Of a DNA stretch of 57,108 nucleotides, positions 48,844 to 54,040 are shown in pieces (the stretch's first letter is position 1; each line of letters begins with the position of its first letter). A program made the translations under genes and the position numbers. Below the pieces are notes generated by a model. That model saw only the letters and a program-made list of their open reading frames with translations, did not search any database and was not told the DNA's origin. The stretch is from an uncultured Clostridium sp. (GTDB lineage: Bacteria; Bacillota; Clostridia; Oscillospirales; CAG-272), in contig CAZMKU010000002.1 in NCBI GenBank assembly GCA_964567085.1, forward strand, positions 1 through 57,108. Direction: 5' to 3'.

Positions 48844-51573
48844 CTATTTATAATTACAAATAAGAGTTGCTCTCGTCAAATAGTCATTCGCTCTCCCGAT
48901 AGAAATCTTATCCCACTCTTTTTGTGTTCCCGTATAATATACCGTTTTAAGGCTTGTGCAATAAACAAACGCATAATCACCTATGCTTGTTACACTTTCG
49001 GGGATAGTTATGCTCTTAAGGCTCGTGCAACCAGAGAACGCATAATCACCGATGCTTGTTACACTATCGGGGATAGTTATACTCTTAAGACTTGTGCAAT
49101 TATAGAATGCCAAAGAGCCTATGCTTGTTACACTTTCGGGGATAGTTATGCTCTCGAGGTGAGAATATCCATAAAATGCTCGTAGCGAAATACTCGTTCC
49201 ACTCGTAATAACAACTTTTTTCAAGTTGCCCGACGGAATATATTGCATTATTTCCGCGGGGCCCGTTATTGATTCGATGTTACAGTACTTAAACGTATCT
49301 GCATCAATACCTTCTGACGACAATATTGTTATCTCGGTCAACCCACAATCATTTATAGCATATTGATATTGGCCTTCAGCCATAGCCTTATAGGCCTCCA
49401 ACATTAAAACCTGCTCCGAAGTAAGACCCGCAGCCAAGGCCTGTTCATATGCACCCTTATAATCCCCTCTCGACGCTAATTCATTGATTGAAGAAATCAC
49501 CTTTTCATAAATGATATCCATAAGGGAAGTGGAATCTTTATAGTCTTTTATTTCCTTGAATAAAGCATACGCCGATGAATACTGTTGATCATCCATCAGC
49601 TCTATAGCTTCATTGTATTTAAACTCCTTGACTCTATCCTCGCTATCCTTATACCCTTCAAGCTCCTCAAAGATAGATATTGCCTCAGCATATTCGCCCG
49701 CATCCATCAGCGCGATCGCGTCATTATATTTATTGTTAGGAATAATAACGGTGTTCAAAACTATAATAAACACAATAGCCGCAAATACAATAGAGGTTGC
49801 AATAATAACGATTTTTTCGTTGAGCTTTGCTTTCCTTGCTCGCTCTAATTTACGTAGTCTTTCCTTCTCATTTAATTCATCTATCTTTTGCTTGCAATAA
49901 GTAATTAACTCATCGGCGTTTTTATATCCACTAATAGAGGTAAGCAATTTAATAACTTCATAGTAAGAATTAACAGAATTACCGGCGTTCCTTATCTTGC
50001 TTTGAGCCGATGACAAGAAAGCTTCTTTTCTTGCGATTTCGGCTTTTTCAAGGCATTCTTCTACAAGCTCTGCGGAATTCTTGTAGATCAAAATGCGCTG
50101 AAATACAGTAGCCGCCGCCTTGTATGCCGCTTCGCTGTTTGCTATGCTCATTTGTTCCATTGCCGTACTGTATACGCCTTCAAGCTGTGCTTGCTTTGCC
50201 TTCCCAATGCACTCTTCTCTCTTCTCTTTAGCGTCTTTATAATCAATGATAGAGCAAAACTCATCCGCAGCGGCTTTAAAATCAGCCTCCGTCATTGCCG
50301 TATTCATTTTACGGATAGCGACATCATATATAGCATCAAAATTTCTTGTAATTATATAATCTACATATCCACTAAGAGTATTTCTTAATTTCTCATCGCC
50401 AAATCTCATAGCCTTTTGATAATTATTTCTCTTATCAAACGGCTCTCCGCAATCCTTTAATCCATCTTGATTTCGAACGCGCAGCTCCGCCATCAGTTTT
50501 CCGAGATAGGCTTCAGCATTTTCAGGATCCTGATCGAGAACCTTTTCACAATATTCATTGGCAGAATTCCAATCGCCGTCCTCTAAAAACATAAAGACAC
50601 GCTTCAAGAGGGGTGAGACGTTGGCATTCATACTTGAAACAACGGTTTCTTTTACAACGGTAGCAGGCTTAGGTTCATCCTTTTTAACAACTTTCTTTAT
50701 GCCGCGAACGAGGTCATTGATAAAGCCAATCTTTGCCATGTCCTGCGCCTGAAGGTGCGCAAACTCCTCAGGAAGCTCATAAGCATCCATATCACGATAG
50801 CAAGGGATAAGAAGCTTGGAACGATCCTTTTTAATAATCTTCAAGTATCTCGACCACTCGTTCTTTACCCAAACGGCGTTAAAATATTCAGGTCTGGTTC
50901 CAATCGTAAGCATAACCTTTGCAGAATTGAGCGCCGCAAAGATGATAGGCTCGTATGCCGAACCAAGCTTACCCTCAAGAGTTATTGCGGCATAGAATAC
51001 CTTAAATCCCTCCTGCGTAAGCTGATAATAAATATCGTTTGCAATTACGCTGTCCTGCGTCCTTCTTCCGTCAGAATCGGTCTCCTTGTAGCAAATAAAT
51101 ACGTCGTATGCCTCTTCTTTCTGCGCAAGCGCAAGTATCTCCTTCTGTATTCTGTCAATTTCCTTTGCTTGTTCTTCGTAGATAGCACGCTGAGAGAGGT
51201 CTGCATTTTCAATTGCAGACTTATAGTCATCATCAGCTATGATAGAGTCGTAAGATGCTCTGTGACAAGTGGGAATTTTCTTGAACGTAGCGGGATCGTC
51301 AACGTACTCAATACCGTACTTGCAGAGAATAAGACCCCAATATGCCTCGGACTGGGTTGTATCTGCCTGAATTATCTTCTCATAGAGCTTTTCTGCTTTG
51401 TCAAACTCGCTTTTGATACGCAGAGTGTTGGCTCTGTTAAACAAATTCTGAAGATTTTCATCAATAGCCTTCGGCACGGTCTGCTTCGTGCCGCAATAAT
51501 CACATTCCGCAATTGAAACTCCCTCGGCTATTTCGAGGTCTCCACCACACATTTTACATTTAAAAAGTGCCAT
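48844..51573 (-). CDS. 909-aa multidomain protein: N-terminal zinc ribbon, TIR domain, TPR repeats, single TM helix, TPR-like region, BspA-type leucine-rich repeats
   Basis: Zinc ribbon: CKMCGG...CDYCG. TIR-like block (aa ~156-285): YDVFICYKETDSDG...VFYAAITLEGKLGSAYEPIIFAALNSAKVMLTIGT...AVWVKNEWSRYL. TM helix IVIIATSIVFAAIVFIIVLNTVII (nt 49741-49812) is preceded by RLRKLERARKAKLNEK. The C-terminus carries three 23-aa repeats, SITIPxSVTSIGxxAFxxCTSLK. Confidence 0.8.
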   Translation of the reverse strand: MALFKCKMCGGDLEIAEGVSIAECDYCGTKQTVPKAIDENLQNLFNRANTLRIKSEFDKAEKLYEKIIQADTTQSEAYWGLILCKYGIEYVDDPATFKKIPTCHRASYDSIIADDDYKSAIENADLSQRAIYEEQAKEIDRIQKEILALAQKEEAYDVFICYKETDSDGRRTQDSVIANDIYYQLTQEGFKVFYAAITLEGKLGSAYEPIIFAALNSAKVMLTIGTRPEYFNAVWVKNEWSRYLKIIKKDRSKLLIPCYRDMDAYELPEEFAHLQAQDMAKIGFINDLVRGIKKVVKKDEPKPATVVKETVVSSMNANVSPLLKRVFMFLEDGDWNSANEYCEKVLDQDPENAEAYLGKLMAELRVRNQDGLKDCGEPFDKRNNYQKAMRFGDEKLRNTLSGYVDYIITRNFDAIYDVAIRKMNTAMTEADFKAAADEFCSIIDYKDAKEKREECIGKAKQAQLEGVYSTAMEQMSIANSEAAYKAAATVFQRILIYKNSAELVEECLEKAEIARKEAFLSSAQSKIRNAGNSVNSYYEVIKLLTSISGYKNADELITYCKQKIDELNEKERLRKLERARKAKLNEKIVIIATSIVFAAIVFIIVLNTVIIPNNKYNDAIALMDAGEYAEAISIFEELEGYKDSEDRVKEFKYNEAIELMDDQQYSSAYALFKEIKDYKDSTSLMDIIYEKVISSINELASRGDYKGAYEQALAAGLTSEQVLMLEAYKAMAEGQYQYAINDCGLTEITILSSEGIDADTFKYCNIESITGPAEIMQYIPSGNLKKVVITSGTSISLRAFYGYSHLESITIPESVTSIGSLAFYNCTSLKSITIPDSVTSIGDYAFSGCTSLKSITIPESVTSIGDYAFVYCTSLKTVYYTGTQKEWDKISIGRANDYLTRATLICNYK
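48946..49152 (-). repeat. Three tandem 69-nt coding repeats (23-aa LRR units); a degenerate fourth unit extends to about 49215
   Basis: DNA-level near-identity is visible, with ...ATGCTTGTTACACTTTCGGGGATAGTTATGCTCTTAAGGCT... repeated at 69-nt phase. The units encode SITIPESVTSIGSLAFYNCTSLK, SITIPDSVTSIGDYAFSGCTSLK and SITIPESVTSIGDYAFVYCTSLK. Confidence 0.85.
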
Positions 51574-52300: not shown

Positions 52301-53677
52301 TCAAAGCTTTTCGCCGCATTCAAGGCAGAATTTTGAGCCTGCGGGAATATCCGCGCCGCACTTCGGACAGCTTGTAGCAAACTTATGTCCGCACTCGGGA
52401 CAGAACTTGCCCTTTGCAACCGTCTTGCCGCATTCGGGGCAAACGACGCTGTCTGCGGAAACGACCTTCTCGCCGCACTCAAGACAGAACTTCGCATTTT
52501 GAGGAAGTGTTGCGCCGCACTTCGCGCATTTTGCTTCTACTTCGGTGCTTATGGGCGCGCCAAATCCCTTCATCATACCGCCAAGCTGTGGAGCAACTAC
52601 ACCTGCAGCCGCCATTCCAACGCCAAGCCCTATCATATCCCCTGCAACGCTGCCGCCGCCCGTTATCGTCATATTGCCAAGACCCTCTGCATATGCCTTC
52701 TGAACCTCTGCCTGCATAACGTCCTTTTCGGTATAGCCCTTAGCCCGCATAACCTCGGCTTCCGCAAAACCAGCCATTTTTGCGGCCTGTGCCTCGGTCT
52801 GCGCCTTGATAAGCTCGCGCTCTGCCTCACGCTTTGCGACCTCGGTCTCGGTCGTTTGTCTTTCCATCTCGATCTTTCTGCGAGCCGCCGTAACCTCAGC
52901 CTCGGCATCCGCCTGTGCGGATTTAACAAGAGCCTCTGCCTGAATCATTCTCGTTTGGAAGGAAACCGTGTGCAGCTCCTTCATTCTTCTGAAATTGGGA
53001 TCGTTTTCGGGCAAAGAGATATTTGTTATGTAAAACTCGGGTATTGTTAATCCGTATTCCTCAAAACCGCCCACAATACTCTTCCGCATAATCTCGGAAA
53101 GCGTCTCAAGGCTCTCGTCAATTTCGAGAATATTTATATTATTGGCTTTGATTGCATTTGTCAAGTGGGATTTTACCGCCGTTGAAACAAGAGGACGGAA
53201 TGCGCTTTGAATAGACTTTGTAAAGCCTACGCCATTTTCACCCCAAGCAATACCTCGCATAGTACCAACCAGCTTCAAAAGAAGCTTACGGGAATCCGCT
53301 ACAGCAAGATTCATCTCGCCGCAAGCGCCGATCTCCAATGGAATGCCAAGATTGGGATCGAGAAATCTAACCTTGGAGTCCGTTCCCCATTTCACCGCCA
53401 TCTGCACGGTTTTGTTAATGAAATAGACCTCACAATGAAAGGGGGTCTCTCCACCCGTGGCCTTGTTTATCATCTTACCAAGCTTCGGGATGTTTTGCGT
53501 TTCAAGCGTGTAACGGCCTGCCCCAAACAAATCAAGAGCCTCTCCGTTCATAAAGAAAATCGCCTCTTGTGACTCGTGAACGATAAGCTGTGTAGTCGTG
53601 TTAAAATCCTCGCAAGGATGCTTCCAGATAAACGTGCTGTTGTCGCCCTCGTACTTAATAATGTCAGATATTGCCAT
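52301..53677 (-). CDS. SPFH/Band-7 domain protein of the COG4260 (YdjI-like) type with three C-terminal zinc ribbons
   Basis: The ATG at 53677 (MAISDIIKYEG...) is preceded by GGGAGGA. LIVHESQEAIFFMNGEALDLFGAGRYTLETQNIPKL is the characteristic YdjI-family N-terminus. An Ala/Glu-rich coiled coil follows, then CAKCGATLPQNAKFCLECG, CPECGKTVAKGKFCPECG and CPKCGADIPAGSKFCLECG. The upstream 68 codons in the ORF track are non-coding promoter sequence. Confidence 0.88.
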   Translation of the reverse strand: MAISDIIKYEGDNSTFIWKHPCEDFNTTTQLIVHESQEAIFFMNGEALDLFGAGRYTLETQNIPKLGKMINKATGGETPFHCEVYFINKTVQMAVKWGTDSKVRFLDPNLGIPLEIGACGEMNLAVADSRKLLLKLVGTMRGIAWGENGVGFTKSIQSAFRPLVSTAVKSHLTNAIKANNINILEIDESLETLSEIMRKSIVGGFEEYGLTIPEFYITNISLPENDPNFRRMKELHTVSFQTRMIQAEALVKSAQADAEAEVTAARRKIEMERQTTETEVAKREAERELIKAQTEAQAAKMAGFAEAEVMRAKGYTEKDVMQAEVQKAYAEGLGNMTITGGGSVAGDMIGLGVGMAAAGVVAPQLGGMMKGFGAPISTEVEAKCAKCGATLPQNAKFCLECGEKVVSADSVVCPECGKTVAKGKFCPECGHKFATSCPKCGADIPAGSKFCLECGEKL

Positions 53678-53718
53678 AATTCCTCCCATTTTTCTACATA
53701 AATATCCAAAATTCTTAT

Positions 53719-53777
53719 CTTTAACACAATTATATACTAAAAATATGTTAAAGTCAAGATAAATTCTTAACTTTAAC
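53719..53777. promoter_or_regulatory. Inverted repeat plus a third half-site in the divergent XRE/SPFH promoter region (candidate operator)
   Basis: CTTTAACA (53719-53726), 19 nt, TGTTAAAG (53746-53753), a perfect 8-bp inverted repeat. A further CTTTAAC lies at 53771-53777. All sit within the 120-nt gap between the two divergent start codons. Confidence 0.5.
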
Positions 53778-53797
53778 GATTTTAGGAGGATATAATT

Positions 53798-54040
53798 GTG
53801 AAGATTTACGACTACAACGGCAAGAAAAACATTTGTGGCGACAGAATTCACGAGGCGCGTTGCCGTCACAGGCTCACGCAAAGCGACCTTGCGGCAAAGC
53901 TTCAGGTTGCGGGCATCATTATAGAGCGCGACAGCATATCCCGTATCGAAATCGGCACGAGATTCGTGGCGGACTACGAGCTTCGCGAGCTCGCAAACAT
54001 TCTCGGCGTTACAACCAACTGGCTTTTAGGCTTGGAATAG
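53798..54040 (+). CDS. XRE-family helix-turn-helix transcriptional regulator (80 aa)
   Basis: GTG start with an AGGAGGA RBS. The HTH_3 pattern reads GDRIHEARCRHRLTQSDLAAKLQVAGIIIERDSISRIEIGTR...LRELANILGVTTNWLLG. Confidence 0.88.
   Translation: MKIYDYNGKKNICGDRIHEARCRHRLTQSDLAAKLQVAGIIIERDSISRIEIGTRFVADYELRELANILGVTTNWLLGLE

Follow-up and report, generated by a model that had tools for sequence, protein, structure and literature searches.

The gene considered here lies on the reverse strand of a 57,108-nucleotide stretch of contig CAZMKU010000002.1 (assembly GCA_964567085.1, an uncultured Clostridium sp.), hereafter the window, and encodes a 909-aa protein in which a zinc ribbon, a TIR domain, a helical-repeat linker, one transmembrane (TM) helix and a leucine-rich repeat (LRR) domain follow one another from the N-terminus. 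A match to a curated model above its threshold, together with a TIR fold in the predicted structure, places the protein in the TIR superfamily, and from its sequence it is predicted to be a type II (N-in/C-out) single-pass membrane protein with the TIR domain in the cytoplasm and the LRR domain outside the cell. It stands in a cassette with an SPFH gene and a gene for a membrane protein of four TM helices (4-TM), and it belongs to a family in which a constant N-terminal module is joined to exchangeable distal domains. The balance tips modestly towards the protein being an outside-in TIR receptor, functionally analogous to a Toll-like receptor (TLR) and assembled independently, a reading whose basis is computation and in which topology, NADase activity and ligand sensing are what we infer. 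What is new here is a TIR signalling protein in a receptor-like, cassette-embedded form that is predicted to span the membrane. The parts of the gene are as follows, all on the reverse strand.

48844..51573, reverse strand: whole TIR gene, third in the cassette; open reading frame (ORF) for the 909-aa zinc-ribbon / TIR / helical-repeat / TM / LRR_5 protein
51478..51573, reverse strand: Cys4 zinc ribbon, aa 1-32 (C6, C9, C24, C27), from Cys invariance and the strands of an AlphaFold2 (AF2) model
51121..51459, reverse strand: conserved pre-TIR region, aa 39-151, with a TPR motif at 39-85 (three helices), a beta-hairpin at 88-103 (GIEYV...PTCHR) and long helices at 115-151
50686..51108, reverse strand: TIR domain, aa 156-296, from Pfam TIR_2, AF2 and Foldseek
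50857..50859, reverse strand: codon of E239, the Glu of W235-x-x-x-E239; invariant, aligns with the TcpB/BtpA and TLR Glu
49813..50616, reverse strand: predicted cytoplasmic linker, aa 320-587, with a TPR at 330-358, degenerate helical repeats and a basic stretch, RLRKLERARKAKLNEK
49741..49812, reverse strand: single TM helix, predicted signal anchor (N-in/C-out), aa 588-611, from hydropathy and charge bias
49354..49740, reverse strand: helical stalk predicted to be extracellular, aa 612-740; the 'GYKDS' repeat occurs twice (aa 641, 678)
48847..49353, reverse strand: predicted extracellular BspA-type LRR_5 domain, aa 741-909, from Pfam LRR_5

The TIR domain and the N-terminal module

A preliminary description of this DNA had placed a TIR block at aa ~156-285, and this is borne out in three ways. 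Pfam TIR_2 (PF13676) matches aa 158-280 with 38.2 bits against a gathering cut-off of 28 (E 2.4e-9); an AF2 model of aa 1-320, built from 65 diverse homologues (pLDDT 84.8, pTM 0.76), contains an alpha/beta domain at aa 158-296; and the best Foldseek matches of that model in the PDB are TIR domains, among them AbTir (7uxu), with a TM-score of 0.73 on the target and an rmsd of 3.8 A. Further TIR matches of the model are MyD88, MAL, SPARTA TIR-APAZ, Roq1, C. elegans TIR-1, TIR-STING and PdTIR. The combination of AlphaFold and Foldseek had been set beforehand as the check on the TIR fold, and on aa 1-320 it put TIR domains at the top. A single-sequence search of PDB sequences with the same 320 residues returned no TIR, just TPR and zinc-ribbon noise, and a family profile is needed to find one. 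Identity within the TIR domain exceeds 77% across the family.

The motif WVKNEW, with E239 as the glutamate of a conserved WxxxE, had also been pointed out from the sequence; it is present, and W235 and E239 are invariant in the 65 homologues, as are C6, C9, C24 and C27. A family profile of the TIR region aligns with the TIR domain of TLR15/2 (E 0.012) and with Brucella TcpB/BtpA (E ~0.1), and although these alignment E-values are weak (0.01-0.15), W235 and E239 fall in both on the W and E of WxxxE ('WPARE' in TcpB/BtpA, 'WCQYE' in the TLR). In BtpA the motif is W213...E217, and E217, with which E239 is aligned, has been shown by experiment to be essential for catalysis (PMC7188309). Within the reach of sequence and structure prediction, the TIR fold and the catalytic-type Glu are confirmed, and NADase activity is presumed.

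Upstream of the TIR domain, AF2 predicts four short strands over aa 2-32, and the zinc ribbon there has weak matches to those of LysW and RpoP. The pre-TIR region is modelled with pLDDT mostly of 85-96; its aa 40-81 match consensus TPR proteins in a profile search, and W79, G87, E89, Y90, T102 and R105 are invariant among the same 65 homologues. Taken as a whole, the protein is matched in Pfam by TIR_2, LRR_5, TPR_19 (aa 330-358) and TPR_2 (aa 44-71). The NCBI copy (P0001) is 902 aa long and begins at M8, so that the first Cys of the zinc ribbon is cut off (51553-51573). The sequence MxxFKCKMCGG, which begins at M1 and includes the first Cys pair of the ribbon, is conserved at the start of nearly all homologues, and M1 at 51573 is therefore likely to be the start of the protein rather than NCBI's M8. 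The N-terminus so defined, MALFKCKMCGGDLEIAEG, shows no hydrophobic signal-peptide core, in agreement with the first reading of the gene as a 909-aa protein without a signal peptide.

The transmembrane helix and the predicted topology

The sole 19-residue segment above a Kyte-Doolittle value of 1.4 falls at aa 588-611 (IVIIATSIVFAAIVFIIVLNTVII, peak 3.24), with seven Lys or Arg residues (K/R) in the 15 positions before the helix and one in the 15 after it. Hydropathy and charge thus uphold the initial observation of one hydrophobic helix (nt 49741-49812) behind a strongly basic stretch, and the layout of an extracellular sensor, one TM helix and a TIR domain in the cytoplasm is predicted from hydropathy, positive-inside bias and family statistics. 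Among the best 120 full-length homologues, a single strong TM helix is present in 112, flanked by 4-12 K/R on its N side and 0-4 on its C side. A less biased sample, 104 complete ORFs from 82 loci, divides into three classes: one TM helix in 62, with K/R higher on the N side in 61 of the 62 (mean 6.3 vs 1.5); no TM helix in 27 (~26%), of which 12 still bear DUF6273, RCC1 or LRR_5; and two to four C-terminal TM helices in 15, where the outer domain is small or absent. The recognisable binding domains of the single-TM class (DUF6273 in 31, RCC1 in 14 and LRR_5 in 7) lie after the helix in 52 of 52 cases. In a related genome (L005), LRR_5 modules with the same C-terminal cap ('CNY') are carried by a lipoprotein (lipobox LASC) and by an N-terminally signal-anchored protein, and the export of this same LRR_5 type, together with the family statistics, supports an N-in/C-out orientation of the window protein. 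The arrangement proposed at the outset, with the N-terminal ~587 aa inside and the C-terminal part outside, therefore stands as a prediction.

Helical repeats occupy both the linker and the stalk. Those of the linker end in Y-K-[DN]-[AS] at aa 445, 497 and 550 in the repeat listing, the TPR there being assigned by Pfam TPR_19. Those of the stalk have weak Pfam matches (TPR_7 at 620-647, SRP_TPR_like at 652-713), and the stalk repeat type is found after the TM helix in 43 of the 62 single-TM relatives and before it in 8. Seven of the top 120 homologues (P0018, P0038, P0041, P0076, P0106, P0118 and P0120) have TIR, TPR and LRR_5 and no hydrophobic helix (maximum Kyte-Doolittle 1.18-1.41); judged by hydropathy, they are apparently cytosolic versions of the TIR/LRR_5 protein.

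Such TM-less homologues, 7 of the top 120 and 27 of the 104, some of them with TIR, TPR and LRR_5, DUF6273 or RCC1, together with the presence of the same helical repeat on both sides of the helix, would suit an arrangement in which the helix does not span the membrane with the C-terminus outside and the LRR domain stays in the cytoplasm. The protein would then be a cytosolic sensor built of TIR, TPR and LRR, with a loose likeness to a plant TIR-NLR minus its NTPase. For the window protein this is very improbable: first, the helix has 24 residues, its hydropathy peak is 3.24 and the positive-inside bias is 7 to 1; second, the bias is kept in all but one of the 62 relatives and the binding domains are always distal to the helix; and third, a lipoprotein and a signal-anchored protein bear LRR_5 of this type.

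A constant module with exchangeable distal domains

A search with the full-length protein yields at least 8000 relatives. With aa 1-320 as query against ~15 billion proteins clustered at 50% identity, each cluster standing as a single representative, 7138 clusters matched at E<=1e-3 and 4145 at E<=1e-30, and in the best 150 of these matches the module always stands at the protein's own N-terminus, in proteins of 436-1591 aa. A scan of species-representative genomes gave at least 594 confirmed stretches with the module. The carriers are gut and rumen Clostridia (Oscillospiraceae, Acutalibacteraceae, Ruminococcus, Faecousia, Lachnospiraceae and Erysipelotrichaceae), among them the cultured Ruminococcus flavefaciens MC2020 and Ruminococcus sp. 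YRD2003; a few carrier bins are labelled Bacteroidota and may be binning errors. A family so large and abundant (4145 clusters, at least 594 stretches) probably matters for the ecology of uncultured gut and rumen Clostridia. Neither the 50,697 phage records nor the 72,556 plasmid records searched contain a copy of the N-terminal module, and on this basis a mobile-element origin was rejected.

The closeness of the window protein to its syntenic or closest relatives differs by region:

aa 1-300: 90-94% identity
Helical linker: 35-58% identity
Post-TM stalk: 30-61% identity
LRR domain: 48-67% identity

The C-termini themselves vary among relatives and include LRR_5, DUF6273, RCC1_2, Flg_new, FNIP and LRR_EndoS. 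LRR_5 is a minority outer domain in the family and is outnumbered by DUF6273, which is C-type-lectin-like, and by RCC1. A signalling end that stays constant while the distal end changes fast and is swapped is, as read from these sequences, the signature of receptor families. The suggestion made in the preliminary description, of a recurrent, unstudied gut Firmicutes family with a zinc ribbon, PTCHR, TIR and variable C-termini, proved sound, given the 4145 clusters, the swapped C-termini and the absence of any description in the literature searched. The open-access papers covered (a TIR survey, surveys of targets of diversity-generating retroelements (DGRs) and the Aravind-group conflict-system papers) contain no description of the architecture, of the SPFH / 4-TM / TIR cassette or of DGR-targeted TIR proteins. 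The family is very large, Clostridia-specific and apparently without description in that literature.

TIR paralogues commonly stand in tandem, two to five together, among the 82 loci; at L016:456-15321 and L018:3-13000, four to five tandem TIR-module paralogues with differing C-termini surround a single SPFH / 4-TM pair. No paralogue of the TIR gene was found within the window.

In the window protein the distal domain is an LRR_5 array like that of BspA-like surface proteins. The match to Pfam LRR_5 (PF13306) spans aa 783-885 and scores 117.3 bits; the general LRR_8 model gives 16.5 bits, under its cut-off of 27. There are three clean units of 23 aa, beginning at aa 809, 832 and 855 and flanked by degenerate ones, which fits the three to four BspA-type repeats counted at first, and the clean units are encoded by three 69-bp tandem DNA units at 48947-49154 that are ~84% identical. 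The LRR_5 region (aa 783-893, 48874-49227) also matches two PHROG phage families of unknown function (E 1e-23 and 1e-21), which means that phages of these hosts use this type of LRR as well.

Hypermutated distal domains in relatives

DUF6273 has a C-type-lectin-like fold and is a known DGR target in Faecalibacterium phages (PMC10743442, PMC11792537). In the family studied here, L063:10424-12477 falls in a locus with the order SPFH, 4-TM, DUF2971, TIR-TM-DUF6273, bAvd, template repeat (TR) and reverse transcriptase (RT; RVT_1, 79 bits), and the TIR gene carries at its 3' end a 127-bp variable region (VR) in which 16 of 17 VR/TR mismatches stand at template adenines. At L074:6520-8572 the corresponding count is 24 of 26, with RVT_1 and bAvd adjacent. 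Both relatives are DGR targets in full, with the VR/TR pair, the adenine-specific mismatches, RT and Avd all present, and in both it is the end of the DUF6273 domain that is rewritten. At L047:5625-7799, Avd and RT homologues lie downstream and just the conserved 24-nt repeat ends were aligned. The main DGR surveys in the open-access literature make no mention of TIR among DGR targets. For the window protein itself, no RT or Avd homologue was found, nor a second copy of the gene's 3' end besides the internal LRR units. The hypermutation of distal domains in some members argues strongly that the distal part of the family's proteins would be a ligand-binding sensor. As a separate observation, at L087:9877-11454 a gene for a 525-aa protein with a weak bAvd-like (23S_rRNA_IVP) match and LRR_5 comes right after a TIR-DUF6273 gene.

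Alternatively, the protein might be a surface adhesin or display protein whose outer LRR, lectin or propeller attaches to plant fibre, mucus, cells or particles, with the zinc-ribbon / TIR part acting as a non-enzymatic anchor or oligomerisation platform that docks on SPFH microdomains and with no inward signal. The outer domains found here (LRR_5/BspA, Flg_new, RCC1 and C-type-lectin) are typical surface adhesion modules of Firmicutes, cellular DGR targets are mostly membrane-anchored binding proteins (PMC8144416), the genomic context is housekeeping with many paralogues per genome, a linked effector was not found, and TIR domains can be pure interaction scaffolds, with the filament-forming MyD88 and MAL among the structural matches. 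For anchoring alone, however, neither 300 residues conserved at 90-94% nor an invariant Glu in WxxxE, a Cys4 ribbon and many conserved surface residues would be required, and a single TM helix is enough for anchoring. Furthermore, the TIR module is kept in TM-less and ectodomain-less relatives, and it is therefore the TIR module, not the adhesin, that appears as the selected core. Attachment as the sole role is unlikely on these grounds, and the outside-in receptor is retained as the preferred reading.

The SPFH / 4-TM / TIR cassette

Upstream of the TIR gene and on the same strand are two genes that recur with it:

52301..53689, reverse strand: SPFH gene, first in the cassette; 462 aa from MGGIMAIS; Pfam Band_7_1 129.5 bits, DZR 58.4 bits
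51590..52285, reverse strand: 4-TM gene, second in the cassette; 231-aa membrane protein of no known family

The SPFH protein is soluble and consists of Band_7_1, a coiled coil, a segment rich in Gly, Ala and Met and, at the C-terminus, double zinc ribbons; no relative of it at E<0.01 was found among PDB sequences. The 231-aa protein is modelled (AF2, pLDDT 78) as four TM helices followed by a cytoplasmic helical bundle. It has 3371 relatives, all without a name, and gave no Pfam, NCBIfam, PHROG or PADLOC family and no Foldseek match at E<0.1; a weak PADLOC hit (E 0.0016) to a '2TM effector' is not relied on. The SPFH gene ends 15 bp before the 4-TM gene, which in turn lies 16 bp upstream of the TIR gene, and no convincing terminator between the three genes was found in the window. 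The three genes appear to be co-transcribed.

Across the 82 loci, tblastn placed an SPFH and/or 231-aa homologue within 8 kb of the TIR gene in 51, always on the same strand (SPFH in 49, 4-TM in 44). The order SPFH, 4-TM, TIR with gaps below 600 bp is present in 22 loci; in others there is one small intervening gene or a cut by the contig end. In an all-vs-all clustering of the ORFs of at least 90 aa in these loci, the TIR module appeared in 82 loci (127 ORFs), SPFH in 49 and the 231-aa protein in 44; these were the only real families to recur, all others being confined to 7 loci or fewer. The same trio occurs in L006, a 55%-identical relative with different other neighbours, and a search starting from 231-aa homologues turned up the same flanking genes at three more places. 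Any C-terminal type may occupy the third position of the cassette.

The closest described analogue of the cassette is probably PspA-YdjGHI of B. subtilis, by a comparison of layout. YdjI, which we take to belong to Band_7_1, invites this comparison on account of its form. In both systems a soluble Band_7-type SPFH protein bearing a low-complexity stretch plus a zinc finger is encoded beside membrane partners, one of which (YdjG) starts with a zinc ribbon and continues with a TM helix and an outer part; YdjI depends on the membrane proteins YdjG and YdjH for its membrane localisation (PMC8581546). In the window cassette, in contrast, the gene order is reversed, pspA is not linked (no further recurrent neighbour in the 82 loci), and TIR, TPR and variable binding domains have been added to the zinc-ribbon membrane protein.

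This likeness raises the possibility that the cassette is an envelope-stress or membrane-integrity module akin to ydjGHI, in which the SPFH protein and its membrane partners would monitor or repair the membrane or wall, the outer domain would touch the cell's own wall and the TIR domain would be the stress output. The soluble SPFH protein with its YdjI layout (Band_7_1, low-complexity segment, zinc finger), encoded beside two membrane proteins, is in keeping with this, as are the zinc ribbon with which YdjG begins (MIISYKCPNC, from a primer in PMC8581546), which resembles the family's MxxFKCKMCGG, the chromosomal housekeeping context and the lack of any copy in the phage and plasmid collections. 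Nevertheless, such a role is quite unlikely: a PspA-like gene does not recur in the 82 loci, the likeness is one of layout, and sensing of the cell's own wall leaves the hypervariable, DGR-diversified and swapped outer domains and the arrays of up to five paralogues unexplained.

Proposed mechanism and its weighing

For the outside-in receptor the following course of events is suggested. The outer domain would bind a variable external ligand, which might be a phage particle, the surface of another cell or a host or dietary glycan, and clustering driven by the ligand would draw the TIR domains in the cytoplasm together, probably organised at the membrane with the help of the SPFH scaffold and the 4-TM partner. 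Self-association of the TIR domains would then switch on NAD+ cleavage or the production of an ADP-ribose-derived signal, and this output would change the physiology of the cell, for example by growth arrest or an envelope response. To our knowledge, all characterised enzymatic TIRs (SARM1, plant TNLs, AbTir, ThsB, TIR-STING and SPARTA) are activated by association.

Several observations weigh against the receptor reading. Non-enzymatic animal TIRs, too, have a conserved Glu at WxxxE. A degenerate helical repeat that ends in G-Y-K-[DN]-[SA] flanks the TM helix on both sides (aa 445-575, nt 49741-50250; aa 612-700, nt 49470-49740). Among the 104 relatives, the 27 without a TM helix include 12 with DUF6273, RCC1 or LRR_5, so that these domains are not obligatorily extracellular and also work in the cytoplasm, and a further 15 end in two to four TM helices without a sizeable outer domain. 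Neither an SPFH nor a 4-TM partner lies within 8 kb in 31 of the 82 loci. Finally, the neighbours in the window are housekeeping genes (dGTPase, DnaG, RpoD) and not a defence island, no linked downstream effector (SIR2, SLOG, Macro, nuclease) was recognised among the recurrent neighbours of the 82 loci, and PADLOC gave no hits for the TIR or SPFH protein.

A bolder form of the proposal can be put forward tentatively, and we consider it rather doubtful in full: that the cassettes are bacterial cell-surface immune or recognition receptors, the first outside-in TIR receptors in prokaryotes, in which a repertoire of paralogues with swappable and partly DGR-hypermutated outer domains would detect phages, competitors or host molecules before cell entry, and clustering on an SPFH / 4-TM platform would fire an NAD+-consuming or signal-producing TIR. 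If this were true, the cassettes would be a functional counterpart of TLRs, with the DGR-linked members as a pre-emptively diversified receptor repertoire.

The bacterial TIR systems known to us (Thoeris, TIR-STING, SPARTA, and CBASS and Pycsar effectors) sense intracellular events. A membrane-coupled TIR with a diversifying external domain, if confirmed, would add outside-in sensing to the bacterial TIR repertoire, and the design would be an independent, convergent version of that of TLRs. The soluble 320-aa module, the cultured carriers and the DGR-linked members' variable regions, which can be read from metagenomes, make the family tractable for experiment.

Comparison with known systems

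The preliminary description had seen in the protein the TLR design with the domain order inverted. The architecture stands as a prediction; the likeness is architectural and convergent only, the class of LRR differs, and zinc-ribbon and TPR parts have been added. What the protein is predicted to share with TLRs and the IL-1R family is a single-pass layout with LRR outside and TIR inside; the pairing, in a large family, of a conserved signalling domain with a fast-evolving sensor domain is common to them as well. The differences are several. TLRs have type I topology, whereas the window protein has the inverted order, a type II signal anchor and no signal peptide; its LRRs are of the BspA/LRR_5 class rather than the TLR class with LRRNT/LRRCT caps; it has in addition a zinc ribbon, a TPR motif and a helical linker of ~270 aa; LRR is just one of several interchangeable outer domains in its family; and the TIR sequence similarity is marginal (E 0.012 to the TLR15/2 TIR). 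We know of no MyD88-like adaptor for the family. The resemblance to TLRs is almost certainly one of convergence and not of membership.

With the enzymatic bacterial TIRs (AbTir, BtpA/TcpB, ThsB, TIR-STING and SPARTA TIR-APAZ) the protein shares a TIR fold with a WxxxE catalytic-type Glu. Activation by oligomerisation is the general rule for these enzymes, and receptor clustering would supply the oligomerisation that they need. In contrast to the window protein, none of them is a transmembrane receptor with an outer sensor, and the window locus is without a ThsA, STING, Argonaute or SAVED partner. Membership of Thoeris through ThsB was rejected, since no ThsA-type effector (SIR2/SLOG or TM-Macro) adjoins the gene or recurs in the 82 loci and PADLOC has no hit for the TIR protein; a match to NCBIfam ThcB4 was likewise set aside at 21.8 bits against a cut-off of 220.

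BspA-like LRR_5 surface proteins have the same kind of outer domain, an LRR_5 array (117 bits in the window protein). BspA proteins in general are exported by a signal peptide or anchor and are not known to carry a TIR module, and the LRR_5 proteins of L005 differ from the window protein in the same way: they lack the TIR module, and their export depends on a lipoprotein signal peptide in one and on an N-terminal signal anchor in the other. Some relatives of the window protein are bona fide DGR targets, as are the membrane-anchored cellular targets of PMC8144416; the window protein, with its LRR_5 domain, is itself without a DGR. The DGR-diversified putative antigen sensors of multicellular bacteria (PMC10907252) also fuse a variable region of C-type-lectin fold to a conflict or signalling domain. 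Those sensors are reportedly cytosolic STAND NTPase proteins of multicellular bacteria, whereas in the present family the variable domain is predicted to lie outside the cell and the signalling domain is a TIR.

Further features of the locus

Two features adjoin the upstream end of the cassette:

53729..53757, reverse strand: candidate cassette promoter, TTGACT-17-TATAAT; the best consensus match (11/12), 40 bp upstream of the SPFH start, by pattern match only
53798..54040, forward strand: 80-aa XRE-family helix-turn-helix (HTH) gene, Pfam HTH_31 / HTH_3; divergent, facing the cassette promoter region

The XRE-family HTH gene may be a local regulator; it does not recur across the 82 related loci. 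As called mechanically, the SPFH ORF has a 64-aa N-terminal extension from a TTG (53690-53881) which is not conserved and overlaps this divergent gene, and the SPFH start is probably MGGIMAIS at 53689, the extension being spurious. The G+C content drops along the cassette (SPFH gene 0.50, 4-TM gene 0.44, TIR module 0.43, linker/TM/LRR part 0.39-0.40), against a window mean of 0.48; the distal variable part (48844-50673) is compositionally distinct from its flanks in G+C.

Some cassettes of relatives carry additional neighbours. In L005:3305-6812, a NadE gene lies two genes upstream on the opposite strand and a nicotinate phosphoribosyltransferase (NAPRTase) gene lies directly upstream on the same strand; linkage to NAD-salvage genes is suggestive in this single case and does not recur across the 82 loci. 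An extra gene of 256-296 aa follows the 4-TM gene at L063:7114-8004, L035:7143-7985, L044:12438-13208 and L069:1927-2724; in L063, L035 and L069 it sits between the 4-TM and TIR genes, and the L063 copy is a marginal DUF2971 (22.2 bits, cut-off 22). Tyrosine or serine recombinase genes are found just upstream of SPFH at L063:4095-4952, L065:4146-4985, L082:1495-2340, L076:4354-4989, L083:4252-4860, L087:1-536 and L088:13-2250, and could mean that the cassette is mobile or that paralogue cassettes have recombined.

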